A stretch of DNA of 64,000 nt from Rhodoblastus sp. (GCA_020442275.1 JAGRKN010000015.1:11369-75368); one strand, 5' to 3'; shown: positions 15,331 to 63,359, numbered from the stretch's first letter. The notes: a model not told the origin generated them from the sequence alone. Made by a program: numbers and translations.

Positions 15331-15656
15331 ATCGCGATTTGCGTCACGCCGGGGATCTGGACGATCTCGTCGGTGAAAGTTTCGTCGGGCTGGAACTTTC
15401 GGAGGTTGAGGGCGATCTCGACCTCCGAGTTGTAGCTCGCCATTTCCAGCACGATGACGAGGCGGCGATTGTCGCCGATGCCGGACCGGCCGTAGGCGAG
15501 GTAGGCGGCGCGGATGGCGTCGAGCGCTGTGACGCCGGCAGCCTCCTGGACGTGGATGCGGACGGGGTGGCCGGGTGATGCCGGGACGACAACGGCTCGT
15601 TGCGCGAGGCGCGGCGCTTCGTCGACAAGGGCGAGATCGAAATCGAGATTGCTCAT
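15327..15656 (-). CDS. Hypothetical protein (109 aa) translationally coupled to dnaE
   Basis: ATG at 15656 (MSNLDFDLALV...) overlaps the dnaE stop as ATGA. Its stop overlaps the stop of the convergent plus-strand gene (CTAG). Confidence 0.55.
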   Translation of the reverse strand: MSNLDFDLALVDEAPRLAQRAVVVPASPGHPVRIHVQEAAGVTALDAIRAAYLAYGRSGIGDNRRLVIVLEMASYNSEVEIALNLRKFQPDETFTDEIVQIPGVTQIAI

Positions 15657-19350: not shown

Positions 19351-19375
19351 TGGTTTTCGGGTTGCCGGATGGTCC

Positions 19376-19418
19376 AAAAGACGGCGCCGGCGTCACTTCG
19401 GGAGAAGTCGCCGGCGCC
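19376..19418 (-). terminator. Strong hairpin (terminator or attenuator candidate) between the DUF736-like gene and dnaQ
   Basis: GGCGCCGGCG (19383-19392) pairs with CGCCGGCGCC (19409-19418), extended by ACTTC/GAAGT around a GGGA loop. On the minus strand it is followed 3 nt later by UUUU (19376-19379). Confidence 0.45.
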
Positions 19419-19439
19419 GAGGGTGCGAGGAACTGACGA

Positions 19440-19859
19440 TCAGTTCTTCTGGGACGGCTTGTCGTTGCCGAGCGAGTAGAAGGGGCTCTTGGCCGGCGAG
19501 CCGTCGGACTTCTTGTCCTTGTAGAAGCCGACGACATTGAAGGTGGCGCGTGCGCCGTTGTAGTCGTGCTCGAAGCTGAAGCGGATCGCGCCCTTGCCGA
19601 TCTGGCCGAAGAAGCGGGTCTTGAACATCGCGCCGCTGAACGCGGGCTCGGACGAGGTCTGGCCGTTTTCGCGGCGGGCGGCCGAGAAACGGTAGTACTC
19701 GGAATCATTCTTCGACTTCTGCGGCGTCGGATCGATCGTCATGGCGTATTCGACGTTGTCGATCTTGATCGTGCCGGAGATGGCGTTGTTGTCGCCGGTG
19801 AACAGGCTGCCGACGATCTTCGCGTCGAGGGCGACCGGCGGCTTGGCGTATTCTGTCAT
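19440..19859 (-). CDS. Hypothetical protein (139 aa), possibly DUF736-like
   Basis: SGTIKIDNVEYAMTIDPTPQKSKNDSEYYRFSA loosely resembles the DUF736 pattern (TGTI.TL....v.i.P........PD.R) common on alphaproteobacterial conjugative elements. The family call is tentative. Confidence 0.6.
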   Translation of the reverse strand: MTEYAKPPVALDAKIVGSLFTGDNNAISGTIKIDNVEYAMTIDPTPQKSKNDSEYYRFSAARRENGQTSSEPAFSGAMFKTRFFGQIGKGAIRFSFEHDYNGARATFNVVGFYKDKKSDGSPAKSPFYSLGNDKPSQKN

Positions 19860-22251: not shown

Positions 22252-22280
22252 CGTCGCCGCCCCGGCGGTCGATGCGCGGG

Positions 22281-28537: not shown

Positions 28538-31500
28538 TCAGGCTGCGAGCAACGACCAGTCCGGCGCGTCATCGATGCGCGCGACGGAGAAACGCGTCGT
28601 CAGAATGGCGAGCGCCTTGTTGCGCTTGCCGGGTTCCTTCGGAAGGAAGAACCGCGGTCCGGCGGCGCCTGGCACTGCGAGCTGGATCAGGCCGATGTCG
28701 CGAGCGACGCCGGCAGCGAGCTTGGTGTCGCGCAGCGTCGGGAAGATCTCGGTCTTCGTTTCGGCGAGAACCAGCTGATTGGCGATCATCCAGTTGTTCG
28801 ACAGGACGAGGGTCTTGTTGGCGTCCAGGCTGGTGTTCAGCGACGACATGTCGAGGCGGCCGGTCGTCGGGTTGTAGCGGGGATCGCTCTTGACCGCCGC
28901 GATGAGCGTGTCGCCTTCGTCTGCTCCCATTATGAGGCCCATGACGCGGCGGCCGTCGGTCGTATCGGCGACGACGGCATGCTGGCGCGAATGGGCCTTC
29001 AGCGTCTCCTGGATGGTCGGAAGCGCGCCGGAAAGGATGACGGTCGGACGCGACATCATCTCGGTGATCTTGGCGACGCGATCCTGCCAGATGGCGCGCG
29101 CCTGCTCGTCGGTCTTGAACGTCGGGATGCGCTCGGCGGTGTAGATCAGCTGCGAGTTGTAGTCGATGATCGTCGACCGGTTCGGCTCGATGATCCGCAC
29201 GCGCGTAGGCTCGGCCAGGATATTCTTGGAGCGCTCGGCGACGATCTGGATCCAGATCTGGTTGGTGACGGGCGACCACCAGACAGTGGGCGGCTGAGCG
29301 TCCGAATTGAAGAGCTCGGCCTCCATCATGGCCGAGTCGTAGTCCTTCATGTCCGGCGGCTTGGCGCCGGAGACGCGGAAGGCGCGGACTTCCGCGCCGG
29401 TCGAGGTGTCCTTGTGGATGACCTCCTCGGACTCGATCTTGAGCTGCTGCTCGATCGGCTCGGGGCCGGAATCGTAGCTGCGGTCGACCAGCGAGTTTTC
29501 GATGGCGATTTCGAGCTCCCGGTCGACGTGGGTGAAGACGCGCGTCTGGAAATTGATCGGCGTACGCGCGATGCGCTTCATGATGCGGCGGATCGTGTGC
29601 TCGTCGCTGGTGAACGTCGGCTTCTTGTCTTCGCCGAGCAGGCGGAAGGACGTCATCTGCTCGAAGTCGGTGCGCACGACGTCGGGATATTTGTCGCCGA
29701 TGACGCCCTGCAGGAAGCGTATGAACGCCATGCGGGCATAGCTGTTCTCATAAGAATGGCGCATCGCGAACGGGCCGGTGACGGCGTCGCGGTGGCCCTG
29801 GCCCGACGCGCCGAGGCGGCGAATGCGGGCGAGCGTCTGGGACAGGTAGGCGCGTTCGGCCGGCAGGTCGGTCGAGACGAGCACGACTTCCGGCGCGTGG
29901 CGCTGGTTCGAGCGGTGCGTGCGGCCGATGCCCTGAACGGCCTGGTCGGCGCGCTGGCCGGGCTGAAGCACGTAGTGGCGGCGCGGCTTCTGGTTCCGCG
30001 CGTCGAGGGCGGCGTGATAATCCATGCTGGCTCCGCCGGCGCCGACGCTGAACGCCAGGATCGACTTGCGCGCGCCCATGAAGGCGGCGAGATCGGCGCG
30101 CACGTCCTGCTCGGTGCGCTTTTCGAGGGTTGGAGCGCCCGTTTTCGGATCGGGAATGTAGCGCTGCGACCGGCCGGTGATTTCGGCGACCTGTTCGGCG
30201 CCGAAGGCGGCGAAGATCTGGTCGAGCGGCGTCGGATGCTCCGGGATGAGGGTGAGGCGCTGGAGGAGGTCGTCCTTGAGCGCCTGGTTGCCGGCAAGCG
30301 GCACGACGGCGCCGGCCTTGTCGCGCGCGGGCTTGTAGCTCGTCATGTAGCGCGTCGAGCTGCCCTTGATGAGCGTCATGCGGACGGTGGGGATGAAATC
30401 TTCGATGAGGCGACGCAGGTTGCGCGCGGCCGTGGCGTCGGCAGCGCCGGCGTCCGCTTCGTAGGTGTTCATGAGCTGGACGACCGGCGCCTTGCCCTCG
30501 GCGAGGGCCTGGCGCATGTCCTCGATCATCGTCGGGGTCTTGAGCGAGACCAGCATCATTTCGGAGATGCGGCGGGCGGCCGCCTCGAAGTGCGAGAACA
30601 TTTCCTTCGGGATCGTGCTGTTGGCCGGCAAAGCTGCTTTCCAGGCCTGTTCGAGGGCCTCGCGGACCTCGAGCACGATTTTCATCGTGTCATCCCAGGC
30701 GCGGCGTTCGCTGGCATTGAGCGTATGGAAGAGCGAAGCGGCGGTGACGCCTTCGAGCGACAGCGTGCGGGTGATCATCAGGCCGGATGCGACGAGATGG
30801 GCCGAGATGATCTCGAGACCGGTCAGGCCGAGCTGCTCGATCGCGCCGAGGCAGTCCTTGCGGCTGGCATAGGGGCAGCCGTCGCCCCACAGGCCGAGGC
30901 GCGACATGTAGGCAAGGTTGTTGAAGTTCGAAATGCCGGTCGCCGTGGCATAGACGATGCGGGCGCGCGGGAGCTTTTCCTGGATGATGAGCCCGGCAAG
31001 GCCCTGGCGGGACGACGCCATCGTGCCGAAGAAACCCTCTTCGCCGACGGCGTTGCGCAGGTTGTGGGCCTCGTCGAAGATGATGACGCCTTCGAAATCG
31101 GCGCCGAGATGCTCGACGAGCTGTTCGATGCGCGGGAAATGGTGGGGATCATCGCCCTCGCGCAGGGTCGCATAGGTCATGAACAGCAGGTGGTTGCGCG
31201 CCGGCAGGGGATCGTCGGCCCGGTAGGCGGCGACGTCGGTGAGGTCGGAGCGCGGGCAGCCGAGCATCATGAGCGCCTTTTCGACGTTGTCACGGTGACG
31301 GGATTTTTCCGTCACGTAGACGGCGCGGCCGCGGCCTTCGGCGCGGTTGGCGAGGACGAGCGCGATCTGCTCGTTCGTCTTGCCGACGCCAGTGCCGTCG
31401 GCGAGCACCACGCCGTAGCGTTCGCCGGTCGGCATGATCTTTTCGTGTGCGCTCATCATGGCGACGACGGCTTCGAACTGCGCGTCGGAGATCGCGCCCT

Positions 31501-32344
31501 TGGCGAGCAGATCGGGATTGAGGCGGGGCTTGGCGGTGTAGAGCGGCGGCTCGATCGAATCGAGCGTCTTGGGCACGATCAAGCGGGTCGGATGGGCCAT
31601 GGCGATGTCGCTGACGGCAAGCCGCGGCTTGTAGGCGTCGTAGATCGCAGTGACCGTTTCGCGTTCGCCGGTTGGCGCGCGCGTATAGCCGATCGGCTCG
31701 AAAACGACTGGCCCTTTCGGCGGTGCCTTGGAGACGGCGCCGGTGCGACGCGGGATCGCGTCGATGGCGGCGACGCTGGCCGGCGTCGCGATATCGACGA
31801 CAATGTCGGCGATCGGCTCGATTTCCGCCTGAAACAGGTCGACGCAGAAGAAGCGGCCGACGGCGATGGTGCAGAAGCGCGGCAGGCCGGCAAGCGCCTC
31901 GGTCCGGCTGGCGTCGGCGGCGCGGATCAGCGCCAGACGGCATTCGTCCGTCGGGGCGAGGCCGGCAAGCGCATCGGCCGACGTGATGATTGCGGTCGAG
32001 ACGGTCGCGCCGGTCTCGATCTCGCCGCCGAGGGCGGCGGCGAATTCTTTCGGCTGAACGGCGTCGGTGACAAGGGCCTCTCCGGGACGGGGAAAGGCGG
32101 CGCGGGCGGCGATCCACCAGGTTTCGGCGACGGCGGGGGTCTCGATGCAGCAGCGTTTGCGCAGCATGCCGGCGTTGAGGAAAGCCATCGGGGCGGCGTC
32201 GAGCAGGGGGCTGACGAAGTTCGCCATGGCCTTGAGGCCGGCAAGGAACACGGCGAGGCGCTCGTCCTCGGGCAGTTCGAGGGCGTTGCCGGACTGGATG
32301 GCCGAGATGTGGCGGGCGATGTCGTGCGGATCGAGCGGCGTCAT
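28538..32344 (-). CDS. Strawberry-notch (Sbno)-like SF2 helicase/NTPase, very large (1268 aa)
   Basis: VLADGTGVGKTNEQIA, IIFDEAHNLRN, RIVYATATGISNFNNLAYMSRLGLWG, GGASMDYHA, QAVQGIGRTHRSNQ. ATG 32344 is preferred because the listed TTG 32365 lies at the terminator U-run. Confidence 0.88.
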   Translation of the reverse strand: MTPLDPHDIARHISAIQSGNALELPEDERLAVFLAGLKAMANFVSPLLDAAPMAFLNAGMLRKRCCIETPAVAETWWIAARAAFPRPGEALVTDAVQPKEFAAALGGEIETGATVSTAIITSADALAGLAPTDECRLALIRAADASRTEALAGLPRFCTIAVGRFFCVDLFQAEIEPIADIVVDIATPASVAAIDAIPRRTGAVSKAPPKGPVVFEPIGYTRAPTGERETVTAIYDAYKPRLAVSDIAMAHPTRLIVPKTLDSIEPPLYTAKPRLNPDLLAKGAISDAQFEAVVAMMSAHEKIMPTGERYGVVLADGTGVGKTNEQIALVLANRAEGRGRAVYVTEKSRHRDNVEKALMMLGCPRSDLTDVAAYRADDPLPARNHLLFMTYATLREGDDPHHFPRIEQLVEHLGADFEGVIIFDEAHNLRNAVGEEGFFGTMASSRQGLAGLIIQEKLPRARIVYATATGISNFNNLAYMSRLGLWGDGCPYASRKDCLGAIEQLGLTGLEIISAHLVASGLMITRTLSLEGVTAASLFHTLNASERRAWDDTMKIVLEVREALEQAWKAALPANSTIPKEMFSHFEAAARRISEMMLVSLKTPTMIEDMRQALAEGKAPVVQLMNTYEADAGAADATAARNLRRLIEDFIPTVRMTLIKGSSTRYMTSYKPARDKAGAVVPLAGNQALKDDLLQRLTLIPEHPTPLDQIFAAFGAEQVAEITGRSQRYIPDPKTGAPTLEKRTEQDVRADLAAFMGARKSILAFSVGAGGASMDYHAALDARNQKPRRHYVLQPGQRADQAVQGIGRTHRSNQRHAPEVVLVSTDLPAERAYLSQTLARIRRLGASGQGHRDAVTGPFAMRHSYENSYARMAFIRFLQGVIGDKYPDVVRTDFEQMTSFRLLGEDKKPTFTSDEHTIRRIMKRIARTPINFQTRVFTHVDRELEIAIENSLVDRSYDSGPEPIEQQLKIESEEVIHKDTSTGAEVRAFRVSGAKPPDMKDYDSAMMEAELFNSDAQPPTVWWSPVTNQIWIQIVAERSKNILAEPTRVRIIEPNRSTIIDYNSQLIYTAERIPTFKTDEQARAIWQDRVAKITEMMSRPTVILSGALPTIQETLKAHSRQHAVVADTTDGRRVMGLIMGADEGDTLIAAVKSDPRYNPTTGRLDMSSLNTSLDANKTLVLSNNWMIANQLVLAETKTEIFPTLRDTKLAAGVARDIGLIQLAVPGAAGPRFFLPKEPGKRNKALAILTTRFSVARIDDAPDWSLLAA

Positions 32345-32366
32345 GATGGTCCTGTCCGTGCGCAAG

Positions 32367-46651: not shown

Positions 46652-47104
46652 TCAGGCGATGTCCTTGGCGGGGGCGGCGGAAGCCGAGTCCGGAATGGAA
46701 GCGTCGGCGGTCGTGTCGGCCTGCGGTTCTTCCGTCTGAAGGCGCTTCTTGGCGGCGTAGACGTTCAGAAGGTCGGAGGCAGAGACGGCGATGGAAGCCT
46801 TTTGGGATTTCCGGTCGGCGGCGTCACCATAGTATTCGATATGCCCCGTCAGGTGGACGAGATCGCCCTTGGCGATGCCCAGGTTCGTGAAACGCTGCAT
46901 CTGGCGCTCGGTGTAGACCGAGACGTTGTGCCAGCTCGTGTGGACTTCGGATTTTCCGTCGCGGCCGCGGACGTAGGAACGGGTGGCGAGGCGGAATTCG
47001 ATTTTCCGTCCAGCAGTGCTGTCGGAATTATCGTGGAACTCGATCAGTTCAGGCTGCGTAATGCGGCCGACGAGCTCCACGCGGTTGAGGCTGTGGTTGG
47101 GCAT
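46652..47104 (-). CDS. ssb: Single-stranded DNA-binding protein (OB fold), atypical C-terminal tip
   Basis: 150 aa from ATG 47104 (MPNHSLNRVELVGRITQPE...TSWHNVSVY...KGDLVHLTGHIEY). SD GGAGG lies 6 nt upstream. The C-terminus ends ...AAPAKDIA rather than the DDDIPF type. Confidence 0.85.
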   Translation of the reverse strand: MPNHSLNRVELVGRITQPELIEFHDNSDSTAGRKIEFRLATRSYVRGRDGKSEVHTSWHNVSVYTERQMQRFTNLGIAKGDLVHLTGHIEYYGDAADRKSQKASIAVSASDLLNVYAAKKRLQTEEPQADTTADASIPDSASAAPAKDIA

Positions 47105-47110
47105 GAAATT

Positions 47111-47150
47111 CCTCCGGGGCGGATTATTCCGTGAGAAGACGCCCCGGAGG
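47111..47150 (-). promoter_or_regulatory. RNA hairpin sequestering the ssb Shine-Dalgarno sequence
   Basis: Perfect 11-bp stem: CCTCCGGGGCG (47111-47121) with CGCCCCGGAGG (47140-47150), and an 18-nt loop. On the minus-strand mRNA the 3' arm contains the GGAGG SD located 6 nt before the ssb ATG. Confidence 0.5.
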
Positions 47151-47168
47151 ATACCTGCGGCCGGCCTT

Positions 47169-50100
47169 TTACGCAAAGGCCTCTCGGCCAGCGCCACGGG
47201 TGGTGACGCGAAAGTGTTTCGACAGGGCCTGGTGGATGGTGCTGGCCCGTTCAATGAGGGTCGGCGGTTCGTTGGATTCGAGAGCCGCGAACTTCTTCTC
47301 GTTCTCGGTCGGATGACGGACCGCGCCGGTCAGGAACGCGACGTCGGCGGCCGTCATGCCCTGACGGAATTTTCCGTGCATGGGTTCGGCCTTGCCCTCA
47401 GCGACGGCGGCGAGGAACGCCGTCGCCTGCTTGGCGTCGGCGATCGGCTTGGCCGGATTGACCCAGGAGGCGACCGCGCGGGACTGCATGCCGAAGAATT
47501 CCTGACCGCGTTCGCGGCCGGAACGGTCGGTCTCGCCGGTCTTGGAATCGACGAAACGGACGCCGACGGAGGCGTTCGTCATGATTGTCGAGTGGCCGGT
47601 GTCGATCATGACCGAGCGGTTCGGCTTGAGCAGCTCGGCGCCGCCTTGTTGGTCCGAGCGCAGCATGCGGGTGGGCGAGGCGGCGATGACGGCGACCGGC
47701 TTGCCGCCGATCGGCTCGATGCGCTTGTCCTGGCCGGCGCGGGCAGCGACGAACAGAGCCGGATCGTTGGCGCGCGCGGCGGCGACCGCCACCGCCTTCG
47801 CGGGGGCCACGGCGGTTTCGAGCGCACGGATGCGGCTCTGCGTCGCGGTGGCGGCGAAGCGCGCGTTCAGCGCGTTCCAGCGGTTCACGAGCTCGCCGTC
47901 GCGTTCCGCGCCGCGCTGGCCGAGGTCGACCATTGGGGGCAGCGAAGGCGCGACCTCGATCGCGCGGCCCTGAGAGATCATCTCGGTGAGGGCGGCGCGG
48001 CTCTCGGGCGAGAGCCCTGTCTTGGCGCTGGGATCGACGACGACCATGACCTTCGCGCCGCTGTTGCGGGCGGCGTTGATGACGACCTCGCCGGTCGGAT
48101 CGTTGGTGGTCGAGATCGTCTGGCCTTTTTCGCCGGCCGTCTGAACCAGGTCGGCGATGACCTTGGCCATCTTGTCGTCGGGCGTCGAGGTGGACGAACC
48201 GATGATTGCGACGTCGGGGCGGCCGAGCTTCTCGATGAGGTCGGGATGGCCCTGGATCGCGAGCGGCTGGTTGGCGGCCTCGACAAGCGGTCCGGTGATG
48301 GCGATCGTCGAATTCTCGCCGAGATAGGCGGGATTGGCCTTGTTCGTGCCGCCGACCGAAATGGTCGGGCTCATCTGGAGGACCGAGTCGATCGCGAACT
48401 GCATGCCGAAGCCGACCTTTTTCGCCGACTGGAAGGCGGCGCGGTCGCTGCCGATCGCGGCGACCAGATCCTTCATCACCGCGGCCTTCTGGGGGTCGAG
48501 CGCGCGGTACTTGTCGCCGGTGAGCGTCGCAGCGTCGACGAGGTCGCGGATCGAAATCGGAGTTTCGAGGCCGTGCTTGACGCGCAGCGCCTTGGCGGCG
48601 CCGGCGATGCGTTCGGCGTCCTTTGTGCTCGTCAGGAAGGCGAGGGCGAGGCGGCCGAGCTGGCTGGCGGCCGGCTTGGTCATCTGCTGTTCGACATCGC
48701 GGCCGAGGTAGATAGAGCGAGCCGATCCCTGGACGACGCTGTCGCGTGCCTTCGGAGCGCCGATACGCGCAAGCGCGTAGGCGCGGTCGGCGGCCATCGG
48801 CTTGCCGTCCTCGTCGTACACGGTGGTCTTCTTGTCGAAGTCCATCGAGCGGCGGGCCGCTTGGCAGGCGTTGAAGTCCTTGTCGGTGAGGCCGAAGACG
48901 GTCGTCTGGGTCGTCAGCGACTGGAGCGCCTGCCAGCTGATAGTGCGCTTCATGCGATCATATTGATCGGTGAGGCGCTGCTTCTGATCGGGGCTCTTGG
49001 CGGCCTCGATCTTGTTGAGGAGCGAGGACGGCGGCTTCGGATCGATGAGGAGCAGGCTGCCGGCCTTGTTCTGCTGCGCGAGGTATTTCGCGCGCGAGGA
49101 GTAGAGCGGGATCTTTTCGCCGTTCTCGGCGACGATGTTGTAGGCGAGCCAGCCGCGGTTGCTCTTGTCGTCGACGAGCGCGCCGCCGGCATTGAGACGC
49201 AGCATGTCCTTCGGATCGAGCGAAGCCTCGACGCGTAGGACCGACATGCCGGCGGCCTGGGCGGCGGCCAGGATGGCGGCCGCCGAGCGCGAGTGATCGT
49301 TCTTGTTGCCGGCGTTGGGATCGGCGATCGCGATCAGCGGCGTGCGATCCGAGGTCTTGACCTTGGCGTTCTGCGCCGCGACGTCCTTGACGGTGCTCGT
49401 GATGACGTCGGGGTGCTTGAAGTATTTCGCGCCCTCGAGGCCGATCGCGTCCATCTGGAGACGGGAAGCGTTCGGACCGAGGAAGGCGTGCGCGGTCACG
49501 GCGAGATAGCCCAGCGTCGGCGGCGCTTCGCGCAGGGAGACGCCGTTCTGGTCGCGCGGCGTCTGGCCGAAGGCGTTGAGGGCCTTGTCGGCGCGGTTCT
49601 TGCCGGCGCGGAAGGCCTCCCAGTAGGGGTGGATGCGGTCGGCGGTCTTGCCGTTCGGGCCTTCGGTGATGATGTAGCGCGGCGTCTCGAGCAGCGTGCG
49701 GGTCGGCATGCGCATGGTCTGGCTGTGCGACAGGGAAGTCTGCACGCCTTCGAGCAGGGCGCCGACGGTTTCGCGCGAAGGGACCTGATCGCCGCGGTTG
49801 ATCGCGACGAAATCGAGCAGGCGGGCGATGACGGTGGCCTCGGCGACCGAGCTGGCGACGATGTCGAGCTGGTCGAGGCCACGGATGCGGGTCGCATTGC
49901 CGCCGGAGAGCGCCTGGGCGATCTGGTCGGCGCGCTCGCGCGCCGTGGCGCCAGTGATCATGGCGCCGGCGACCGCCTTGTAGCGGGCGAATTCCGGCGA
50001 TTGGATGATCGCGTCGGCTTGATCCATCACGGAAGCGAAGCGCTTCGTGCGGTTGCGGTCGGCCTCGGACATTTCGACCGGGTGGCCGCTGGCGGCCGCG

Positions 50101-51074
50101 TCGATCTGGATCTGGATGATGCGGCGTTCGGCGGGCGTGAACTCGTAGTCGTTGATGAGCGCTGCGGTCGCCGCGCGCGTGACGACGAACTCGACGTCGC
50201 GGTCGCTGGAGGCGCGCTGAGGCGCATATTCGATCTGGGTGCCCGAGCGCAGGATCTGCATGGTGAGGCGGGCGCGCTCGGCCTCGGTGAGCTGCTCGGA
50301 ATCGAGCGCTTCGAGCTCGGCTTCGGCGGTTTCGAGGCGCTTGCGCTCGGCGTCGTTGAGGAGCGTAGGATCGGCGGCCGAAAGGCGGTTGAGTTCGGCG
50401 GCGACCGCTTCGCGACCGGCGGCCGCGTAGGAGAAGGCGAGGACGTCGGTGACCTTCGCCGTCTCGTTGTAGATGACGCGGACCGACTGGTCGTAGAGCG
50501 CCTGCAGCTCTTCGGCGCTGCGGTCGAAGAACGGCGTCGTGTCGCCGCCGGCGCGCTCGACGAGCGAGGCGATGGTGGCGCGGCGCTCGCCGCCGAGGCC
50601 GGTGGCCTGGTCGAGGGACTGCGTGCGCAGGTTTTCCAGCATCGCGTCGGGATTGATGGCGTTGTTGGAACGGGCAGCGTCGTTGAGGTACGAGCTGACC
50701 ATCGACTCGACGTGCGAGAAGGCGATGAGCGCGTCGGTCTGATTGTCCGTCATCGGATTGACGGAAGCGGCGCTGCGCGATTCCGTGCGCAGCGCGCCGC
50801 GAACGTCGGCGATGCGGTCCTGGCGGCGGATCGCGGCGGCGCCCTTCTCGACGATCTCATTGAGCGCGCTCCAGTAGAGAGCGCGGGCCTCGTTGTTCGG
50901 CGAGCCCAGCATGACTCCGGCGTCCCTCAGGTGGTCCTTCGCCAGATCCTTGGGTTCGCCGTGGCGCGGGCGGTCCGGATTGTGCAGGATGGAGTCATTG
51001 CCGATGAAGACAGGTACGCGGTCGGCGGCAGTGGTGAGATCGAGATAATCGAAATCGTAAGCGCGAGCTGGCAT
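47169..51074 (-). CDS. Very large multidomain (polyvalent-type) protein, 1301 aa, with a DprA/SLOG-like Rossmannoid segment
   Basis: Uninterrupted ORF with SD GGAGA. The segment VAIIGSSTSTPDDKMAKVIADLVQTAGEKGQTISTTNDPTGEVVINAARNSGAKVMVVVDPS resembles the DprA/SLOG nucleotide-binding fold. The rest is unrecognised, with coiled-coil-like stretches. Confidence 0.75.
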   Translation of the reverse strand: MPARAYDFDYLDLTTAADRVPVFIGNDSILHNPDRPRHGEPKDLAKDHLRDAGVMLGSPNNEARALYWSALNEIVEKGAAAIRRQDRIADVRGALRTESRSAASVNPMTDNQTDALIAFSHVESMVSSYLNDAARSNNAINPDAMLENLRTQSLDQATGLGGERRATIASLVERAGGDTTPFFDRSAEELQALYDQSVRVIYNETAKVTDVLAFSYAAAGREAVAAELNRLSAADPTLLNDAERKRLETAEAELEALDSEQLTEAERARLTMQILRSGTQIEYAPQRASSDRDVEFVVTRAATAALINDYEFTPAERRIIQIQIDAAASGHPVEMSEADRNRTKRFASVMDQADAIIQSPEFARYKAVAGAMITGATARERADQIAQALSGGNATRIRGLDQLDIVASSVAEATVIARLLDFVAINRGDQVPSRETVGALLEGVQTSLSHSQTMRMPTRTLLETPRYIITEGPNGKTADRIHPYWEAFRAGKNRADKALNAFGQTPRDQNGVSLREAPPTLGYLAVTAHAFLGPNASRLQMDAIGLEGAKYFKHPDVITSTVKDVAAQNAKVKTSDRTPLIAIADPNAGNKNDHSRSAAAILAAAQAAGMSVLRVEASLDPKDMLRLNAGGALVDDKSNRGWLAYNIVAENGEKIPLYSSRAKYLAQQNKAGSLLLIDPKPPSSLLNKIEAAKSPDQKQRLTDQYDRMKRTISWQALQSLTTQTTVFGLTDKDFNACQAARRSMDFDKKTTVYDEDGKPMAADRAYALARIGAPKARDSVVQGSARSIYLGRDVEQQMTKPAASQLGRLALAFLTSTKDAERIAGAAKALRVKHGLETPISIRDLVDAATLTGDKYRALDPQKAAVMKDLVAAIGSDRAAFQSAKKVGFGMQFAIDSVLQMSPTISVGGTNKANPAYLGENSTIAITGPLVEAANQPLAIQGHPDLIEKLGRPDVAIIGSSTSTPDDKMAKVIADLVQTAGEKGQTISTTNDPTGEVVINAARNSGAKVMVVVDPSAKTGLSPESRAALTEMISQGRAIEVAPSLPPMVDLGQRGAERDGELVNRWNALNARFAATATQSRIRALETAVAPAKAVAVAAARANDPALFVAARAGQDKRIEPIGGKPVAVIAASPTRMLRSDQQGGAELLKPNRSVMIDTGHSTIMTNASVGVRFVDSKTGETDRSGRERGQEFFGMQSRAVASWVNPAKPIADAKQATAFLAAVAEGKAEPMHGKFRQGMTAADVAFLTGAVRHPTENEKKFAALESNEPPTLIERASTIHQALSKHFRVTTRGAGREAFA

Positions 51075-51156
51075 TGGTCCGTCTCCTTTCGGGGTCCGAG
51101 AATTTTAACACGGACATTGTTCCGTGAAGAAACGGATTATTTTAAGTGGTCCTATT
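51075..51156 (-). promoter_or_regulatory. AT-rich promoter/operator candidate for the polyvalent-protein gene
   Basis: Minus-strand TGTTAAAAT (extended -10 type; hexamer at plus 51102-51107) lies 27 nt upstream of the ATG. Three ACGGA/TCCGT half-sites at 51110-14, 51121-25 and 51132-36 have 11-bp centre spacing. A second TTAAAAT lies at 51137-51145. Confidence 0.45.
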
Positions 51157-52122
51157 CTACCGTAGCTTGACGAGAGCGTGGCTCTGTGAGTCGAGAACGG
51201 TAGCGATGAACTGCGCCGGCGTGACGCCGCGTTCGTCGAGATTGCAGAGATCGTCGCCGAGTTGCGGAGAAAACGCGGAAGGGATGCGGAGCACCTCGAC
51301 GCTGGTTGCGGGTGAATAATCCGCGATGGAGGAGGCGTAGGCGAGGCCCGGGCCGTCCATGTCGGTGGCCACGACGACGCGGCGGCCGAGCAGCGGCGAG
51401 AGGTCGCTGCGCAAGACGGAGCTCCAAGCGCCGGTGGTCGTGCACCAGAAGCCGCGACCGAACCATTTCTTGGCGGTTTCGACGCTCTTTTCGCCCTCGA
51501 GCATCAGGATGTCGGGGGCGATGTCTTGCAGATGGAGATCGTAGAGAATCCGGGGAGTGGCGACAGCCTTCTGTTCCCAGGACTTTTTGCCATTCTCTTC
51601 CCAGACGCTCATCGGGATGAAGGTTTTTTCCGTCGGATCGTCGAGGCTGTCGAAACGGATGTTCCACATGAGGATTTCACCGGAGGCCGAGCGCCAGGCC
51701 CAGCGACCGGCTTCCTTCCAGCGTCCTGGGGGCGGACGGATCTGCCAGGCCTGTGGTGGATGCGGGAGACCGCAGCCGGCCCAGGTCATGCGGGGAGCTT
51801 CCGGCTCGTGGCGAGCGGACGAGGCGCTCGCGGCGGCAGACGATTTGGACGAGAGTCGCGATGCGTCCGACGAAACGTCGAAGCGTTTTGGCGTGGCGTC
51901 GTATTTGTTCTTGAGGGCGTCGATGACCTGCGTCTGGGAGCAGGCGGCATAGCAGTGAAAGACGACGGTCTTGTACCCATCCGCCACGAGCAGCGACGGA
52001 TTGTTCTTGTCGTCGTGGGCCGGGCAGAAGGTTTTGAACGTCGGCGTGGCGCGGCCGTGGATTTGGCATTGGCGGCCGCGCCCGAGCAGGCGGGCAAGGC
52101 CCGCCGCGTCGTAATCAGTCAT
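51157..52122 (-). CDS. Primase-like protein: CHC2-type zinc-binding N-terminus plus Toprim domain
   Basis: FCPAHDDKNNPSLLV...FHCYAACS (Zn-binding pattern). The C-terminal Toprim has LMLEGEKS ... VVVATDMDGPG. Confidence 0.7.
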   Translation of the reverse strand: MTDYDAAGLARLLGRGRQCQIHGRATPTFKTFCPAHDDKNNPSLLVADGYKTVVFHCYAACSQTQVIDALKNKYDATPKRFDVSSDASRLSSKSSAAASASSARHEPEAPRMTWAGCGLPHPPQAWQIRPPPGRWKEAGRWAWRSASGEILMWNIRFDSLDDPTEKTFIPMSVWEENGKKSWEQKAVATPRILYDLHLQDIAPDILMLEGEKSVETAKKWFGRGFWCTTTGAWSSVLRSDLSPLLGRRVVVATDMDGPGLAYASSIADYSPATSVEVLRIPSAFSPQLGDDLCNLDERGVTPAQFIATVLDSQSHALVKLR

Positions 52123-52125
52123 GGA

Positions 52126-53358
52126 TCAGTCCTGCGGCAGGCCGAAACCGGCGCGGCGGCGCTGCAGGCGCGCGATGACCGAGGCGTGGAAGGTCTGGAC
52201 CTCGGGGACGACCTTGGCGATGCCGAGCTTTTGGACGTGTTCGTCGGTCAAGGCGATGGCCTTGGCGATCGCGTCGATGTCCTTGGGTTCGGCGCAGCCG
52301 ATGGCGGAGGCGATGGTCGAGTAGAGCTCGTGCCACTGCTTGGCGGTGAAGGCCTCGGGCTTCGTCTCCATGATCTTGAATTCGGCGCGCAGGTCGTCGA
52401 GCGTCTTCTTGGCCTGGACGCCATGGCCGTTCGTCGCCGGCGGCGTGGCGGCCGGCGCGGCGCCGTTGCCGATCTTGCCGCCCGGCGCGAATTTCGCCGG
52501 TTGCGGGTTGGCTGGCGCAGACTTGGCGGGCTGGGGAGCAGGCTGGGCCTGCATAGGCGCAGCGGGCGGCGCGACGGGAGCAGCGGAGGTGGCCGGCGGC
52601 GGCGGCGCGACGGGAGCAGAGGAAGCCGGCGTTGCTGCGGGTGCAGCCGCCGGCGCTGCTGTGGCCTTCTGTTCCGCGACCGGCGGCGCCGGCAGCGGCA
52701 GGGCCGCGCGCGGGGCAGCGGGGCGGCCTTCGGAAGCGGCTGCATTGACGATGCCGCCATCGGCGGCTTCGATCTGGCGGGTCATGGTGTAGGCGTCGGC
52801 TTCTTCGAAGATGGCGTCAGAATAGTCGGGATTGAACAGCTGCGAGCCGTTGGTCTCGAGGCCGCGCCCGAAGATATTGCCGATCTGCGCCGCACAGCGT
52901 TTGTAGCCGTCGGTGACCGCGCCCTTGACCGCGATCATGTAGGCGGCGGGCTTGTCCTTCAGATCGACTTCGCGGACGTTTGTGCCGACGTCCTCGTAGA
53001 TCGCGGTGTGTCCGGCGTAGCGGATGGTGATGCGGCAGCGCGCGCGGGCGATGAGGCAATGGGGGTCGTAGTCGACCCATTCGTCCTTCTTGGTCGTCCA
53101 GTCTGTCACCTTCTTGCGCTTCGAGGCGCCGGTGAATTCGGCGACGATCGATTCCTCGAGGACTTCGCGGTCCCAGTTCATGGGGCCGTAGACTTCGTCG
53201 AGCTTGGTGAGGATGTAGTCGTCGGTGACGTACTTGATCTTGGTGTTTTTCGGGCCGTCGCGTTCCTTGAGCTTGGCTGCTGGAACGCGTTCCGCGAGTT
53301 TCTCGCGCAGGCGGCGCATGAGCTCTTCGTTCGGATGGGGACGGAGAATGCGGTTCAT
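52126..53358 (-). CDS. Rad52/22-family single-strand annealing protein with P/A-rich linker and extra C-terminal domain
   Basis: 410 aa from ATG 53358 (MNRILRPHP; SD GGAGG upstream). IKYVTDDYILTKLDEVYGPMNWDREV and KGAVTDGYKRCAAQIGNIFGRGL match the Rad52/Sak-type core. The listed 692-aa ORF N-terminus overlaps the YqaJ-like gene. Confidence 0.75.
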   Translation of the reverse strand: MNRILRPHPNEELMRRLREKLAERVPAAKLKERDGPKNTKIKYVTDDYILTKLDEVYGPMNWDREVLEESIVAEFTGASKRKKVTDWTTKKDEWVDYDPHCLIARARCRITIRYAGHTAIYEDVGTNVREVDLKDKPAAYMIAVKGAVTDGYKRCAAQIGNIFGRGLETNGSQLFNPDYSDAIFEEADAYTMTRQIEAADGGIVNAAASEGRPAAPRAALPLPAPPVAEQKATAAPAAAPAATPASSAPVAPPPPATSAAPVAPPAAPMQAQPAPQPAKSAPANPQPAKFAPGGKIGNGAAPAATPPATNGHGVQAKKTLDDLRAEFKIMETKPEAFTAKQWHELYSTIASAIGCAEPKDIDAIAKAIALTDEHVQKLGIAKVVPEVQTFHASVIARLQRRRAGFGLPQD

Positions 53359-53369
53359 GGCGTTGCCTC

Positions 53370-54278
53370 CTAGTTGAGCTGGCCGCCGGCCGGCTGGATA
53401 TCGATGCGCTGGTAGCTGCTGGGCGGCCGGCGCTGTTCCTTGACGTTGATCTGCTTGAAGGCGACCGACGAACCGTCGGACAGGATCGCGCTCGCGTGGT
53501 TGCCGAGGACGGATTTGAGCTGGGCCTTGCGCTCTTCGACCTCGGCGTCGATTTCCTTGCCGACACGCGAATGGGCCGACTTGCGGGAGACCGCGGTCGT
53601 GTAGTTGTCCTTGATCGCGGTGATCTCGGGGCGGTCGCGCAGATCGAGCGGCGGTGCGGCTATCGTCGGCAGATAGCGCGCTTCGAGCGCTTTCCAGTCG
53701 ACCTTGAAGTCGGGCGACGGCTCGTTGTTGTCGAGGATCGACTGGCGGAAGGCGTTGACGCGATCCGCGATGTCGGCGGCGAAGACCGGGTCGTAGGAGA
53801 GTTCGACCAGGCCTTCGTTTTCGCCGCCGCCGGCGAGAACGAAGATGGCGATCGCCTTGAGATTGTAGGCCTGCATGTAGAGCTGCGCCTTGGCGATATC
53901 GGCGAGCGGCGCCTCGATGCCGGCGGGGCGTTTCCAGACGGCATTGAAGACGTCGCCCGAAACCTGCTTGAGCAGGAGAGCGTCGCAGCGGCCGACGAGC
54001 GGCAGATCGCCTTGCGACGTGATCGTGAGGAGATCGTAGAGGCGGACGCAGGAGGCCGGCGGATCGACGGCCTCGGTCTTGGTCAGGGTGCAGCGATAGC
54101 GGCTCTGGATGCCTGCGACGGCTGCATCCTTCAGCATGCGCCGCCAGTCGGAGGCGGCGGAGAAACGCGGCGGTTCTTCGATATGGCCGGCGCAGATATT
54201 CCACAGTTCCCAGGGGGACGGATTGTTCGAGGAGCCGAGGATGGTCGGGACGTCGGACAAACGGATGTCACGGATCAT
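53370..54278 (-). CDS. YqaJ-like (lambda-exonuclease fold) viral recombinase exonuclease
   Basis: The N-terminus LSDVPTILGSSNNPSPWELW matches the YqaJ signature (GSD...ilG.SpW.tp..Lw). The size and its position next to an annealase fit. Confidence 0.75.
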   Translation of the reverse strand: MIRDIRLSDVPTILGSSNNPSPWELWNICAGHIEEPPRFSAASDWRRMLKDAAVAGIQSRYRCTLTKTEAVDPPASCVRLYDLLTITSQGDLPLVGRCDALLLKQVSGDVFNAVWKRPAGIEAPLADIAKAQLYMQAYNLKAIAIFVLAGGGENEGLVELSYDPVFAADIADRVNAFRQSILDNNEPSPDFKVDWKALEARYLPTIAAPPLDLRDRPEITAIKDNYTTAVSRKSAHSRVGKEIDAEVEERKAQLKSVLGNHASAILSDGSSVAFKQINVKEQRRPPSSYQRIDIQPAGGQLN

Positions 54279-59972: not shown

Positions 59973-62900
59973 TCATGCATCTTCGAATTCGACCGCGGGC
60001 TCCTCGGTGACGATCTCGTAGGCCTGCTGGGGCGTTGGGTCGTGAACCGCGTCAGCGGCAGTGGCTTGGGCTCGTCGAGCCTCGGTTTGGGAAATATTGA
60101 ATTTGATTTCGTCGACTCGGCCCATGCGCTGGTGATCCGGGATGGTCTGACGCGCGACAGGGCCCTTGCCGCGCGAGCGCACGAGCGGTGCGATGAGCGG
60201 ATCGTTGAAGAAGAATGGCGCAAGCAGCTTCATCGGGCGGTTGAGGAAGCCCTGCACGAGCACGATGACCTGACCGGGCGGCAGCGCGGCGATGTCTTCG
60301 TGGCGGAGCATCTTCACTGCTTCGAGGTTTTCGGAGGAGCTCCACGCGAGCGGATTGGCGGCCTTCGAGAAGCCTTCTTGCGTCGATTTGGAATGACGCA
60401 TGATGGTCGTTTCGCCGACCATTTCGATGATTTGCTTCGTGGTGTCTGCATTGTTCTGCTGCAGAATGATCTTCACAGCCGTCGTGCTGTTGATCACGCT
60501 GACGTCGGCCTTCGAGTAGATGAGTTCGAGCTGCCCGTAGTCCTGCGCGTAAAAGGCGTAGGAGGTCTGCTTCGACCGGCCGAGGTCGGGGCCTCTGAGA
60601 ACCGATTCCGACTTTGGGAGCTTGGCGAACTCGTCGAGGACGAAGAGAACAGGGAAGGGACCGAGAATGCGGTCGGTCTTCTCGTTGTGTTCGTAAGGGC
60701 CGAACGAAATCAGAGAGTTCGAGAGGACTTCGTAGAGCAGCGCTGTGATGGTGGCGAATGCCGCCGCCTCGGCCTGGTTGACGCAGACGTAGAGCGTCAG
60801 CGGCAACCAGCTGTTGGGCTCGTAGAAAAGGCGCTCGAATTCTTCGGACGCCCATTTGAAATGCTCGAGGCCCTTGTCGTCGACGTAGCGCGTGCGTCCG
60901 GGATTGAGATAGTTCTGGTCGTTCGGGGGCAGGCGCGTGCGCGCGAGGATTTCCTGCTTGAGGACGCCACGCATGTCGTCGGGGGTGAAATCGGTTGCCG
61001 ACGTGCGCTGCTTGACGGCCTCGTTCTTGAAGGGCAGGAGCGCTTGGTCCATCGTGCCGAGCACGCCGGACCGTTCCTTGTCCGCCATGTTGACGAGGGA
61101 CGAAAGTTCGAGGAAGGCGCGCGGCGAGGCGAGCCTCTTGTTGTCTTCGCCGGGCTTGATGATTTCGCAGAGCTTGCGAATCCAGTCGCCGAGCCGGTCG
61201 GTCGAGGGCGGTGGTCCGCCGTAGGACTCCTGCTCTTGCTCGACGGGTTTAGTGTTTTCGAGCTGGGCGTAGGCGATCCAGTCCGACAGCATCGGCAGCG
61301 ACGGCTCTTTGCCGCGCCAGTCTTCGGGCAGTTCTTCCTGGAACTTCGTGTTGTCGGCGTTGTCGCCGAAGACGGTGATGAGGTAGTGGCAGAAGCCCGT
61401 AAAGGCGGCGCGGCCCTTATTGACGAAGTACGTGTCGCCGCCGCCCTTCGGGTCGGGGATCATCACCTTGGCGATCGAGTCGATGTAGGTGTCGCGATTG
61501 GGGCCCCGCGGAGGGACGAGGAGCGGCGACAGGAAGTTGAAGCGTGGATAAAATACAGAGCGCTCCGGATTTTGCTCATCGATAGTATCGACTTTTGACC
61601 AGTCAAGCATATATACAGATGAAACGGTCTCGCGGTGCGCGCCCGTGGCTGCTCTGATTTCAGGCTTGGGATCGTTGACTATAAGTGAGACGCGATCAGC
61701 AGTAATAATTGTCGGAATAACAAAAGCAGCGGTATTATGTGTTACCGTAAAATCATCGAGCAAGTACTGATGATCGCCGTCTATTATGATGCCGAAATAT
61801 GGGCCGTCGCCGATCGGCTCGATTTCGAAGCCGACGTTGGTGACGTCTTTATTGATCCGTCGCGACTCTGCGTGACGGCGGAAGAGTTTGACAGGTATGC
61901 GGTCGACGTCGCCGCTGATGAAAAGGCGCCAGTAGACCGTGTTCTTGATGATACGAGGGGTTGGGTAGGCGGCAAGGCCAAGGGACCGCGCGACGAACGC
62001 GATGTCATTGGCGAGCGTTTCGGAGGCCGTGCAGAAGTCGTATCCGCGACCTGCGGGGTCGTATGAGCCATCGGTGTCGATCAGGCCAGCCAAGAGGGCT
62101 AGGCGGTCATCGGCGCTGGCGGTCTTGTAATCATGCGGGATGAACTTTTGGCAGCAGGGCACGTCGAGGCCGTAATCGCGTAGCTCGGCTAGCAGACTGT
62201 TGGCGCGCCAACGCTCTCCGGGGGTCGCGTTGCCTGCGGTGACGAAATACGAGCCGGAGCGATTGCCTTCTTGATGTTCTTCGCGGATCTGGAGGCCGCG
62301 CGCCTCGGCCTCGGCGTAGATTTCGGCGACAAGTTCGTTGTCCGCGGTATGCAGACCGGCTTTTTTGTTAGTCGTTCCGTCGCCGAGCAGTAGGCCAAGG
62401 CGATAAGGATCGATCTTGAGGCAAGCGTTCGACTGGAAGTCGACGGCAGCGCGCCATTGCTTGTAGAGCGACTTCTGGGTTGGCGACCACGCGAGGTAGT
62501 CCTCGACGGAGGTGAATTTGATGTGACCGCGAAGTGGATTGCGAGCGCGTCGGCGCGGCTCTTTGGAATTGCGCAGCGAAAGGATGTGATAGCCGTTGCA
62601 AATCCAGGAGCGGCCCTTGTTGGGCGTTACGCGATAGAGGGGGCCGTAGCCAGTGCTGGTCGAGAGGATGCGGCGCGGCTTGCTGTCGGGGCCCATCAGA
62701 AGGTCGCCGACAACGAGAGCGCCGGTGCGCTTGGTCGTGCCGTCGAACATCAGGACGGGTTCGTCCGGATGGAGGCATTTTCCTGTGCCTGGTGGCGCGA
62801 GACACAAAGAAGAAAGCGTCTCGATCATCTGTACCATCTGGCCTTTACGCTCGCGACCCTGCCAGCGGCCAAGTGTCATCAAGCGTCCGCCAGCAATTCC

Positions 62901-63359
62901 GACTTGCTTTCTGGCCTCCATTTGCTTGAGCGCGTCGTCATCGCACCAGTCGGCATAGCCGGCCTTCAGGATGATCTTCTTGTGCTTGTTGAAGAACTGC
63001 GGCGTAAAACCGAGAAATGAGCCGAAAAGCAACCAACCCATCAGCTTGGTTATCGGCGTGACGTCGAAATTTCCATTCGCGAAGCCGGCGAAATAGCCGG
63101 ACGCGATGAACATGTCGTGGAAATTGAGCGTGACGACGTCCGTGTTGTAGCGGACGAGCAGAGCCCAGGCGCTCGACAGCGAGAAGCGGTGCGTGACGAT
63201 GCGATGGAAGAGCGCTTCGTTGAGCGGGGCGTACAGCGGAAAAAGAATGGCGAGGAGGAGCGCGAGCGACAGCGACAGGTACAGGATCCGGTAGTGCCGG
63301 TCCCGTTCCTCCGTCATATGGCTGGGCAGCGTCTCTCGCGAGAAGGCATTGAACGTCAT
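59973..63359 (-). CDS. virD4: Type IV coupling protein (VirD4/TraG family) interrupted in-frame by an intein
   Basis: Two N-terminal TM helices. The Walker A is split: LAPPGTGK | intein | TAAFVIPTII. Then SLIVNDPKPE, Walker B VLFVLDEFAKL, and AQDYGQLELIYSKADVSVINSTTAVKIILQQNNADTTKQIIEMVGETT. Confidence 0.9.
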   Translation of the reverse strand: MTFNAFSRETLPSHMTEERDRHYRILYLSLSLALLLAILFPLYAPLNEALFHRIVTHRFSLSSAWALLVRYNTDVVTLNFHDMFIASGYFAGFANGNFDVTPITKLMGWLLFGSFLGFTPQFFNKHKKIILKAGYADWCDDDALKQMEARKQVGIAGGRLMTLGRWQGRERKGQMVQMIETLSSLCLAPPGTGKCLHPDEPVLMFDGTTKRTGALVVGDLLMGPDSKPRRILSTSTGYGPLYRVTPNKGRSWICNGYHILSLRNSKEPRRRARNPLRGHIKFTSVEDYLAWSPTQKSLYKQWRAAVDFQSNACLKIDPYRLGLLLGDGTTNKKAGLHTADNELVAEIYAEAEARGLQIREEHQEGNRSGSYFVTAGNATPGERWRANSLLAELRDYGLDVPCCQKFIPHDYKTASADDRLALLAGLIDTDGSYDPAGRGYDFCTASETLANDIAFVARSLGLAAYPTPRIIKNTVYWRLFISGDVDRIPVKLFRRHAESRRINKDVTNVGFEIEPIGDGPYFGIIIDGDHQYLLDDFTVTHNTAAFVIPTIITADRVSLIVNDPKPEIRAATGAHRETVSSVYMLDWSKVDTIDEQNPERSVFYPRFNFLSPLLVPPRGPNRDTYIDSIAKVMIPDPKGGGDTYFVNKGRAAFTGFCHYLITVFGDNADNTKFQEELPEDWRGKEPSLPMLSDWIAYAQLENTKPVEQEQESYGGPPPSTDRLGDWIRKLCEIIKPGEDNKRLASPRAFLELSSLVNMADKERSGVLGTMDQALLPFKNEAVKQRTSATDFTPDDMRGVLKQEILARTRLPPNDQNYLNPGRTRYVDDKGLEHFKWASEEFERLFYEPNSWLPLTLYVCVNQAEAAAFATITALLYEVLSNSLISFGPYEHNEKTDRILGPFPVLFVLDEFAKLPKSESVLRGPDLGRSKQTSYAFYAQDYGQLELIYSKADVSVINSTTAVKIILQQNNADTTKQIIEMVGETTIMRHSKSTQEGFSKAANPLAWSSSENLEAVKMLRHEDIAALPPGQVIVLVQGFLNRPMKLLAPFFFNDPLIAPLVRSRGKGPVARQTIPDHQRMGRVDEIKFNISQTEARRAQATAADAVHDPTPQQAYEIVTEEPAVEFEDA
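61734..62777 (-). mobile_element. Class-1 intein (348 aa) with LAGLIDADG homing-endonuclease domain, inserted in the T4CP P-loop
   Basis: Residues 195-542 of the ORF. It starts CLHPDEPVLMFDG (Cys1). Block B-like ICNGYHIL. LAGLIDADG motifs LGLLLGDGTT and LLAGLIDTDGS. C-terminal YFGIIIDGDHQYLLDDFTVTHN is followed by Thr (+1). Confidence 0.85.

Follow-up and report, generated by a model that had tools for sequence, protein, structure and literature searches.

Natural transformation has in DprA its textbook handler of incoming single-stranded DNA (ssDNA); the equivalent for DNA transferred by conjugation is much less clear. A locus of Rhodoblastus sp. raises this question anew. It lies in a stretch of 64,000 nucleotides (GCA_020442275.1, JAGRKN010000015.1:11369-75368; hereafter referred to as the window), which is part of a conjugative element that has a type IV secretion system (T4SS) and its own DNA-metabolism genes. 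Between the genes for a primase and a single-stranded-DNA-binding protein (SSB), the window carries a gene for a 1301-residue protein, P0001, and every member of the P0001 family is annotated as 'hypothetical protein'. What is this protein, and what could it do for the element? Its architecture is a helical N-terminal half followed, in the C-terminal 60%, by a duplicated DprA-like module. The gene and its segments, numbered from the first nucleotide of the window, are as follows.

47169-51074, minus strand: whole P0001 gene, 1301 residues, TAA stop included (open reading frame (ORF) list, translation, relatives at 100, 89 and 60%)
49485-51074, minus strand: N-terminal half, residues 1-530, predicted to be all-alpha, family-specific (family alignments, AlphaFold, no hidden Markov model (HMM) or Foldseek match)
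48750-49454, minus strand: Rossmann-fold domain 1, residues 541-775, a degenerate internal duplicate (hhalign against domain 2, AlphaFold, substitution rates)
48264-48749, minus strand: helical linker, residues 776-937 (AlphaFold helices, pLDDT 50-80)
47595-48263, minus strand: Rossmann-fold domain 2, residues 938-1160, DprA-like, holding VAIIGSSTSTPDD...VVVDPS (hhalign, Foldseek, weak Pfam matches)
47172-47594, minus strand: C-terminal region, residues 1161-1301 (family alignments)

According to the ORF list and the translation, P0001 is encoded by a single unbroken ORF of 1301 codons on the minus strand (47169-51074), which starts with an ATG at 51074, just 3′ of AGGAGA, and ends with TAA. 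An initial annotation, made from the sequence alone, had described this uninterrupted ORF correctly except for the strand. A plus-strand gene at 47169-51074 is ruled out, as that translation has a stop, and the long open stretches on the plus strand result from the G+C content of 65%. Relatives are present in metagenomes as a 100% copy and as P0003 and P0004, which have 89% and 60% identity, respectively. The gene is real and under purifying selection: in codon-level comparisons, its ratio of nonsynonymous to synonymous substitutions (dN/dS) was 0.19 against P0003 and 0.40 against P0004, and within the comparison with P0003 it was lowest, 0.107, for residues 531-780, the region of domain 1.

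The likeness to DprA is clearest in domain 2. In the family alignment, the block at residues 938-1160 repeats the motif order of the DprA Rossmann domain. Searches with an HMM against single sequences proved too weak for this domain, as an eight-sequence profile of it retrieved nothing from the PDB sequences but eIF2B and designed Rossmann proteins, and not one DprA; profile-profile comparison was therefore needed. As the reference, we aligned the DprA Rossmann domains from 28 proteobacterial genomes and compared them with the family by hhalign. A 10-sequence family profile matched DprA with a score of 35.5 (P 1.4e-4) over 173 colinear columns. A 13-sequence profile (P0001 residues 925-1165), which took in the Sphingomonadales members and that of genome G129, matched the 28 DprA domains with a score of 52.9, a probability of 93.5% and an E-value of 2.3e-7 over 176 colinear columns. 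The match includes the lead-in strand, in which P.L.v.G...p.vAIIG of the family is aligned with PPLL.vkG...p.vAIVG of DprA. As controls, we used reversed alignments, which scored 12-14, and 20 column shuffles, which scored 10-21 (maximum 21.3) and were run against the earlier, smaller family profile rather than the 13-sequence one scoring 52.9; the real pairs scored 35-53. With hhalign at its defaults, the match extends over the Rossmann fold and the short lead-in, and the domains that flank it in DprA (SAM-like at the N-terminus, winged-helix at the C-terminus) align to P0001 solely under a permissive setting.

Other families of the SLOG superfamily matched less well. The domain 2 block reached 48% against LOG and 40% against YAcAr, in both cases over the first 64-66 columns only (66 for LOG), which span just the first beta-alpha-beta-alpha-beta unit, and the known superfamily pair of DprA and LOG, with alignments built alike, gave 86%. 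From the 93.5% over 176 columns, as compared with 48% for LOG and 40% for YAcAr, DprA is the SLOG family nearest to domain 2. The candidate identity of P0001 as a LOG-type enzyme was rejected, since the PGGxGTxxE motif of LOG (PF03641) is absent and the hhalign match is limited to the 48% over 66 columns.

Domain 1 is related to DprA by way of domain 2. The two domains of P0001 matched each other in hhalign with a probability of 80-82% and an E-value of 1e-5 over 150-155 columns, with controls at 20 at most. Compared with DprA directly, domain 1 gave 0.2%, no match, so that its link to DprA runs through domain 2 only. In the resulting alignment, R.IGWQA.QSL....VFGL...DYN.CQ..RR...GK..V.D of domain 1 stands opposite RNRIISGLS..VVVVEA...SGSLITAR.A.EQGREVFAVPG of DprA. 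Domain 1 contains TPLIAIADPNAG... and the best-conserved motifs of the family, DLYSS.GQ, IGWQA.QSL and VFGL..DYN.CQ..RR. As judged from the profiles, domain 1 (541-775) duplicates the DprA-like domain 2 within the same protein and is the more degenerate copy.

As an independent assessment of the fold, we used an AlphaFold model of residues 525-1301, for which the input alignment held about two diverged clades. The model was modest because of this input (mean pLDDT, the predicted local distance difference test, of 54.5), with values of 70-91 in domain 1 and 60-84 in the first half of domain 2. In a Foldseek search against the PDB, the DprA of Streptococcus pneumoniae (3uqz) ranked first (E 9e-5, probability 1.0), followed by that of R. 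palustris (3maj); the top DprA matches, 3uqz, 3maj, 5mll and 4ljk, including H. pylori DprA, had E-values of 9e-5 to 2e-2 and a probability of 1.00. Rank 4 was taken by the DprA-like antitoxin ShosA (8zva, E 1.8e-3), and the lower ranks by the SLOG folds of LOG, the MoCo carrier protein and TT1887 (1weh, 1wek, 5its, 2iz7, 6y01, 1rcu and 5zbk, probability at least 0.96). A viral structure library gave DprA-like, YspA and LOG proteins. These results, taken together, show that P0001 carries what is predicted to be a DprA-type Rossmann fold of the SLOG superfamily. The initial annotation had proposed a DprA/SLOG-like module on the basis of residues 955-1016 (48027-48212) and a second Rossmann-like stretch on the basis of residues 578-615 (49230-49343). 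Both segments were found at these positions, and the sensitive profile and Foldseek searches that it had suggested as checks recovered the fold in the predicted structure; the module now extends to a tandem pair, with the second stretch lying in domain 1, the degenerate duplicate.

Several findings weigh against regarding P0001 as a protein that acts like DprA. The Pfam model PF02481 (DNA_processg_A) detects neither P0001 nor any of 11 members of the family, with a cut-off as lax as E<=1, and a six-frame search of the host genome with it yields nothing but the canonical dprA, located on a different contig; the host thus keeps its own DprA, which would make a second one redundant. The domains of DprA that bind ssDNA have two signature motifs, G-S/T/A-R and F/L/Y-x-x-R-N/D (Wang et al., PMC3950713), and the arginine of motif 1 is the switch of the ssDNA pocket, Arg52 in HpDprA (PMC3950713). 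Motif 1 is not kept in the family: only its glycine is conserved, P0001 reads GSS, and the other members read GAA, GAV, GSA, GHN, GGR, GGK, GGD and GQN, with an arginine in one only. Neither is motif 2, which reads TATQSR in P0001; only the arginine one position past the motif (R1081) is nearly invariant, although member P0014 keeps R-N-R and two members keep the aromatic residue. The structural evidence has its own weaknesses, namely the low mean pLDDT of 54.5, with the second half of domain 2 below 50, and a Foldseek output that came without the query region, so that the DprA matches are not assignable to domain 1 or domain 2. In addition, residues 1-530, half of P0001, have no assignable fold, and the main activity could therefore reside there. 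Because the signature motifs appear to be lost, ssDNA binding through the canonical DprA pocket cannot be assumed. Since both ssDNA motifs are largely lost and a canonical dprA exists in the host, the P0001 family is a new diverged DprA-like clade within SLOG and not a DprA orthologue.

The remainder of P0001 is peculiar to its family. Searches with the whole protein gave no significant model match in Pfam, PHROGs, NCBIfam and PADLOC, and phmmer gave no usable match to PDB sequences; in these libraries, the initial annotation's statement that the rest of the protein resembles nothing recognisable holds. A second kind of domain (methylase, ArdC-N, MPTase/peptidase, nuclease, ART, helicase, SNF2/UvrD or primase) was found by none of Pfam, PHROGs, NCBIfam, PADLOC, PDB sequences and Foldseek. 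Residues 1-530 had zero HMM matches in Pfam, PHROG and NCBIfam. The AlphaFold model of residues 1-560 shows helices only, and the Foldseek search with the N-terminal model yielded coiled-coil noise alone, with no usable match, at a mean pLDDT of 41.8. Family alignments reveal a conserved motif, M.AR.Y...RVPVFIG..L.NPDRP...D.A...YW..L..I., within the first ~75 residues.

The helical linker aligns to the N-terminal domain of DprA solely under a greedy hhalign setting; this segment (776-937) may contain a SAM/HhH-like domain corresponding to that of DprA. The sole Pfam match of the whole protein, to CbbQ_C (E 0.006), is below the cut-off and falls in this linker, and was judged spurious. Across 11 members, the recurring sub-threshold Pfam matches were to CbbQ_C, to YAcAr in 3 members (best E 0.066) and to LDcluster4 in 1; the single YAcAr match with a reported position, in the Microvirga member, falls on the segment 955-1016. 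In the C-terminal region, where the AlphaFold pLDDT is <50, the family conserves ASW..PA, G(M/L)TAA and R.PT..E. It ends with a basic tail, [FI]R[VI]-x(8-12), which has a net charge of +1 to +4 in 9 members. This conserved tail would be compatible with recognition by a T4SS of the VirB/D4 type, and proves nothing by itself.

How widespread is the family? When 1.84 billion representative proteins were scanned exhaustively by HMMER with P0001 residues 102-1301, just 10 were retrieved, none of them a known DprA or SLOG protein. Pattern scans found five Microvirga genomes only among 185,579 species and one fragment at 96% in metagenomes. Profile searches of 200 genomes from the same taxonomic family added one copy, and those of 400 genomes sampled across the same class gave 0. 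Against 72,556 plasmids, tblastn with P0001 retrieved the Microvirga homologue alone; megablast of 24 kb against plasmids gave zero matches, and word-indexed searches with P0001 and with the alignment returned close relatives only. The distant members, missed by sequence search from P0001, were found by synteny in two cultivable strains: WP_129392724.1 (1413 residues), on plasmid p1 of Sphingosinicella sp. BN140058, which matched the family in hhalign at 99.2% (E 1.6e-19), and its 47% relative WP_115418080.1 (1398 residues), on a plasmid of Erythrobacter aureus YH-07. The P0001 family is thus very rare, and occurs in alphaproteobacterial T4SS conjugative elements and megaplasmids.

The gene neighbourhood provides the second line of evidence. 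The features of the window around the P0001 gene, and those farther away, are listed below.

51157-52122, minus strand: stand-alone DnaG-type primase with a CHC2 zinc ribbon, 321 residues, upstream of P0001 (phrog_6088, E 3e-15; Pfam Zn_ribbon_DnaG weak)
51075-51156, minus strand: 82-bp spacer 5′ of P0001, with the AGGAGA Shine-Dalgarno sequence and TGTTAAAAT, an extended -10-like box (sequence reading)
47105-47168, minus strand: 64-nt spacer from the P0001 stop to ssb, with a GC-rich hairpin (sequence reading)
46652-47104, minus strand: SSB, 150 residues, downstream of P0001, start ATG at 47104 (Pfam SSB, E 8.5e-10)
52126-53361, minus strand: Rad52-family annealase (Pfam Rad52_Rad22, E 3e-17)
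53370-54278, minus strand: RecE/YqaJ-like exonuclease (PHROG RecE-like exonuclease, E 7e-11)
59973-63359, minus strand: T4SS coupling protein of the VirD4/TraG type with an intein (Hint and LAGLIDADG homing endonuclease; Pfam)
28538-32365, minus strand: 1275-residue Strawberry-notch-type helicase (AAA_34 and Helicase_C_4; co-oriented block)
19909-22893, minus strand: 994-residue protein with a C-terminal VWA domain (co-oriented block)
15653-19708, minus strand: DnaE, 1351 residues (Pfam)
8583-11945, minus strand: class II ribonucleotide reductase (RNR)
3006-4124, minus strand: DnaN clamp

In the direction of transcription, the order is coupling protein, UvrD, topoisomerase III (TopoIII), RecE/YqaJ-like exonuclease, Rad52-family annealase, primase, P0001 and SSB; then two small ORFs, UvrD, TrbL-like and other T4SS pieces, a RecD-like helicase, a ParB-like protein and the Strawberry-notch helicase; and lastly a further DEAD-box helicase, the VWA protein, DnaE, class II RNR and DnaN. 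A T4SS-type apparatus (the VirD4-type coupling protein and TrbL-like protein, plus VirB10 and VirB11 in relatives) flanks the DNA-metabolism block. The placement of the gene within a replication/recombination block, made in the initial annotation, is borne out by its primase, SSB, Rad52-type, RecE-like, TopoIII and UvrD neighbours. No relaxase, initiator, replicative helicase or helicase loader was recognised in the 64-kb window.

This arrangement is conserved. The P0001 gene directly follows the primase gene in all seven loci, which represent five diverged lineages (Microvirga, the Erythrobacter and Sphingosinicella plasmids, G129, and metagenomes). It precedes ssb in five of the seven; in the Sphingosinicella plasmid ssb was not seen adjoining, and the G129 contig ends first. 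The order primase-P0001-ssb, with Rad52, TopoIII and UvrD around it, is present on the P0003 and P0004 contigs, on pMVF16-3 of Microvirga sp. VF16 and on the Erythrobacter plasmid. The core order of primase and P0001 recurs in genome G129, and the Sphingosinicella plasmid retains TopoIII, primase and the P0001 homologue.

The initial annotation had also assigned the gene a promoter-like region of its own. The TGTTAAAAT box was indeed seen in the 82-bp spacer, and a two-hexamer sigma-70 scan found zero promoters there; in view of this negative scan, a promoter specific to P0001 is a possibility only. On the other side of the gene, a perfect GC-rich hairpin (CCTCCGGGGCG ... CGCCCCGGAGG) lies in 47105-47168, and its 3′ arm includes the ribosome-binding site of ssb. 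This hairpin might couple or attenuate the translation of ssb.

Some further features of the element may be recorded here. The window has about 65% G+C and a strong, constant GC skew, positive throughout the 64 kb (about +0.16 for the plus strand), and all of its plausible genes are apparently on the minus strand; so strict a one-strand layout over 64 kb is unusual for a conjugative element. The coupling proteins on the P0003 and P0004 contigs are of about 780 residues and lack the intein. In DnaE, the Pfam polymerase core begins only at residue 589, which leaves a long extra N-terminal part or an insert. In the class II RNR the barrel match is split and a TSCPD domain is present, and the related plasmids of Sphingosinicella and Erythrobacter carry RNR, LigA, RNase HII and dTMP kinase.

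What, then, could P0001 do? We tentatively favour, at somewhat less than an even chance, the reading that it acts on ssDNA, as a mediator or organiser serving the single strand of the element during transfer or replication. We are led to this reading because P0001 is closest in fold to DprA, the receiver of incoming ssDNA in transformation, and because the Rossmann domains that DprA brings together by dimerising are present twice within the single chain of P0001. The gene keeps its place between those for primase and SSB, beside the exonuclease/annealase pair, which argues for ssDNA handling rather than anti-defence. Domains 1 and 2 would form the intrachain equivalent of the DprA dimer. P0001 would bind ssDNA of the element, be it the transferred strand once in the recipient or intermediates of rolling-circle replication, and would work with the SSB of the element in helping to pass the ssDNA to a partner. 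The adjacent primase is a candidate partner for complementary-strand synthesis; the Rad52-type annealase of the element, or the RecA of the host, would serve recircularisation or recombination. Published work gives some precedent: DprA binds incoming ssDNA, loads RecA and acts as a dimer (PMC3950713); B. subtilis DprA is reported to raise the frequency of Hfr conjugation in E. coli (PMC12386762); and the DprA-like ShosA is reported to bind ssDNA and, directly, RecA (PMC12961424).

A bolder version of the mediator reading has, in our estimate, only a slim chance of being right. As a mediator specific to conjugation, P0001 would travel with, or immediately meet, the transferred strand; its DprA-like pair would displace SSB and load the Rad52-type annealase or the primase, not RecA, so that establishment would be self-contained and RecA-independent. 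If this is true, conjugation would have in P0001 its own equivalent of the DprA step in natural transformation.

Three other explanations are, to about the same degree, unlikely. According to the first, the Rossmann domains bind a free nucleotide or a signal derived from one, such as NAD or ADP-ribose derivatives or cyclic nucleotides, and P0001 is a sensor of the state of the recipient or a sponge for immune signals, which comes near the anti-defence idea. The residues G959, G995-E996, D1104 and G1114 are kept across the family in loops at the strand ends, which serve Rossmannoid folds as ligand-binding sites; the Foldseek matches include LOG and the MoCo carrier protein, the weak Pfam matches include YAcAr and LDcluster4, both SLOG families, and the ssDNA motifs of DprA are lost, all of which would suit such a function. 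Yet it is DprA, and not LOG or YAcAr, that is closest over the full domain, the LOG motif PGGxGTxxE is absent, and the PADLOC/anti-defence scan was empty save for a chance-level match of one member to ZorF. The conserved neighbours, all of them DNA-replication or recombination genes, also speak against it.

A role as a modulator of RecA and the SOS response, analogous to PsiB, is improbable to a similar extent. Here the DprA-like domains would bind RecA and restrain filament formation or SOS on the entering strand. In many plasmid leading regions, psiB adjoins ssb, as the P0001 gene does, and the loss of the ssDNA-pocket motifs suits a protein-binding role; moreover, ShosA, one of the top Foldseek matches, is reported to bind RecA directly (PMC12961424). 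On the other hand, the residues that contact RecA are not mappable on P0001, its similarity to PsiB is zero, and the element's own annealase and exonuclease argue for the promotion of recombination.

The third of these explanations, to which we give equally little credence, makes P0001 a scaffold of the replisome or relaxosome, in which the Rossmann domains are degenerate and free of ligand and the helical half acts as an initiator, helicase loader or organiser. It draws on the replication genes of the window (DnaE, DnaN, primase, SSB and RNR), among which an initiator, replicative helicase and loader went unrecognised, on the loss of the DprA signature motifs, and on the half of P0001 that is helical and has no recognised fold. 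It is at odds with the dN/dS of 0.107, which makes domain 1, the more degenerate copy, the most constrained part of the gene, with the conservation of ligand-site-type loop residues, and with the HMM libraries, in which initiator-type features such as a winged helix-turn-helix or AAA+ were not detected.

The initial annotation's own proposal, a polyvalent anti-defence effector delivered by the T4SS with several distinct modules in one chain, is the least probable: its carriage by a conjugative element and its SLOG/DprA module stand, and large size, a basic tail compatible with a VirB/D4-type signal and the frequency of such proteins on conjugative elements (PMC5512222) fit, but it is disfavoured because only one domain type, duplicated, is recognisable. 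ArdC-N, MPTase, methylase, SNF2, ParB-nuclease, ART and the like were unseen in any library or fold search, and the gene order, conserved inside a DNA-metabolism block, points to ssDNA handling.

The preferred reading, that of an ssDNA-directed mediator or organiser, can be set beside several known systems. Sog of ColIb-P9 and TraC1 of RP4 are plasmid primase proteins that bind ssDNA and enter the recipient along with the transferred strand. The locus described here resembles them in that a conjugative element links a primase function with a very large polypeptide, and differs in that the primase is a separate 321-residue gene directly upstream, so that P0001 as a fused primase was rejected. 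The polyvalent proteins (Iyer et al. 2017, PMC5512222) are, like P0001, large, encoded on conjugative elements and possibly active early after DNA entry, but they combine at least two distinct conflict domains, whereas P0001 has a single recognisable domain type. With the SLOG families LOG/PF03641, YAcAr/PF10686 and the MoCo carrier protein, P0001 has the Rossmannoid core in common, with weak matches in sequence and fold; the difference lies in the partial coverage (64-66 columns, 40-48%) and in the LOG catalytic motif, absent from P0001.

ShosA (8ZVA; PMC12961424), the antitoxin of the ShosTA defence system, is another case of a DprA-like fold outside transformation, in a mobile-element or defence setting. 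It is described as a small homodimer paired with a PRTase toxin; for P0001, no PRTase partner was found and PADLOC gave zero matches. The best match in both structure and profile is DprA/Smf itself (PF02481; 3UQZ, 3MAJ, 4LJK), with which P0001 shares the Rossmann topology including the lead-in strand. DprA handles incoming ssDNA as a dimer of Rossmann domains, and P0001 has two such domains per chain. P0001 differs in being unmatched by the Pfam model, in the large loss of the ssDNA motifs, in about 1000 extra residues, in the tandem duplication, and in its location next to primase and SSB genes on a conjugative element whose host retains dprA. The family is both a new diverged clade and a new tandem architecture of the DprA/SLOG fold, missed by the Pfam, NCBIfam and PHROG models, and its unannotated, duplicated DprA-like domains are found in elements equipped with a replisome of their own (DnaE, DnaN and RNR). 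If the ssDNA motifs are truly lost, the DprA fold would have been put to another use here; if the mediator reading holds, the P0001 family could be the element-encoded counterpart of DprA for conjugatively transferred DNA.

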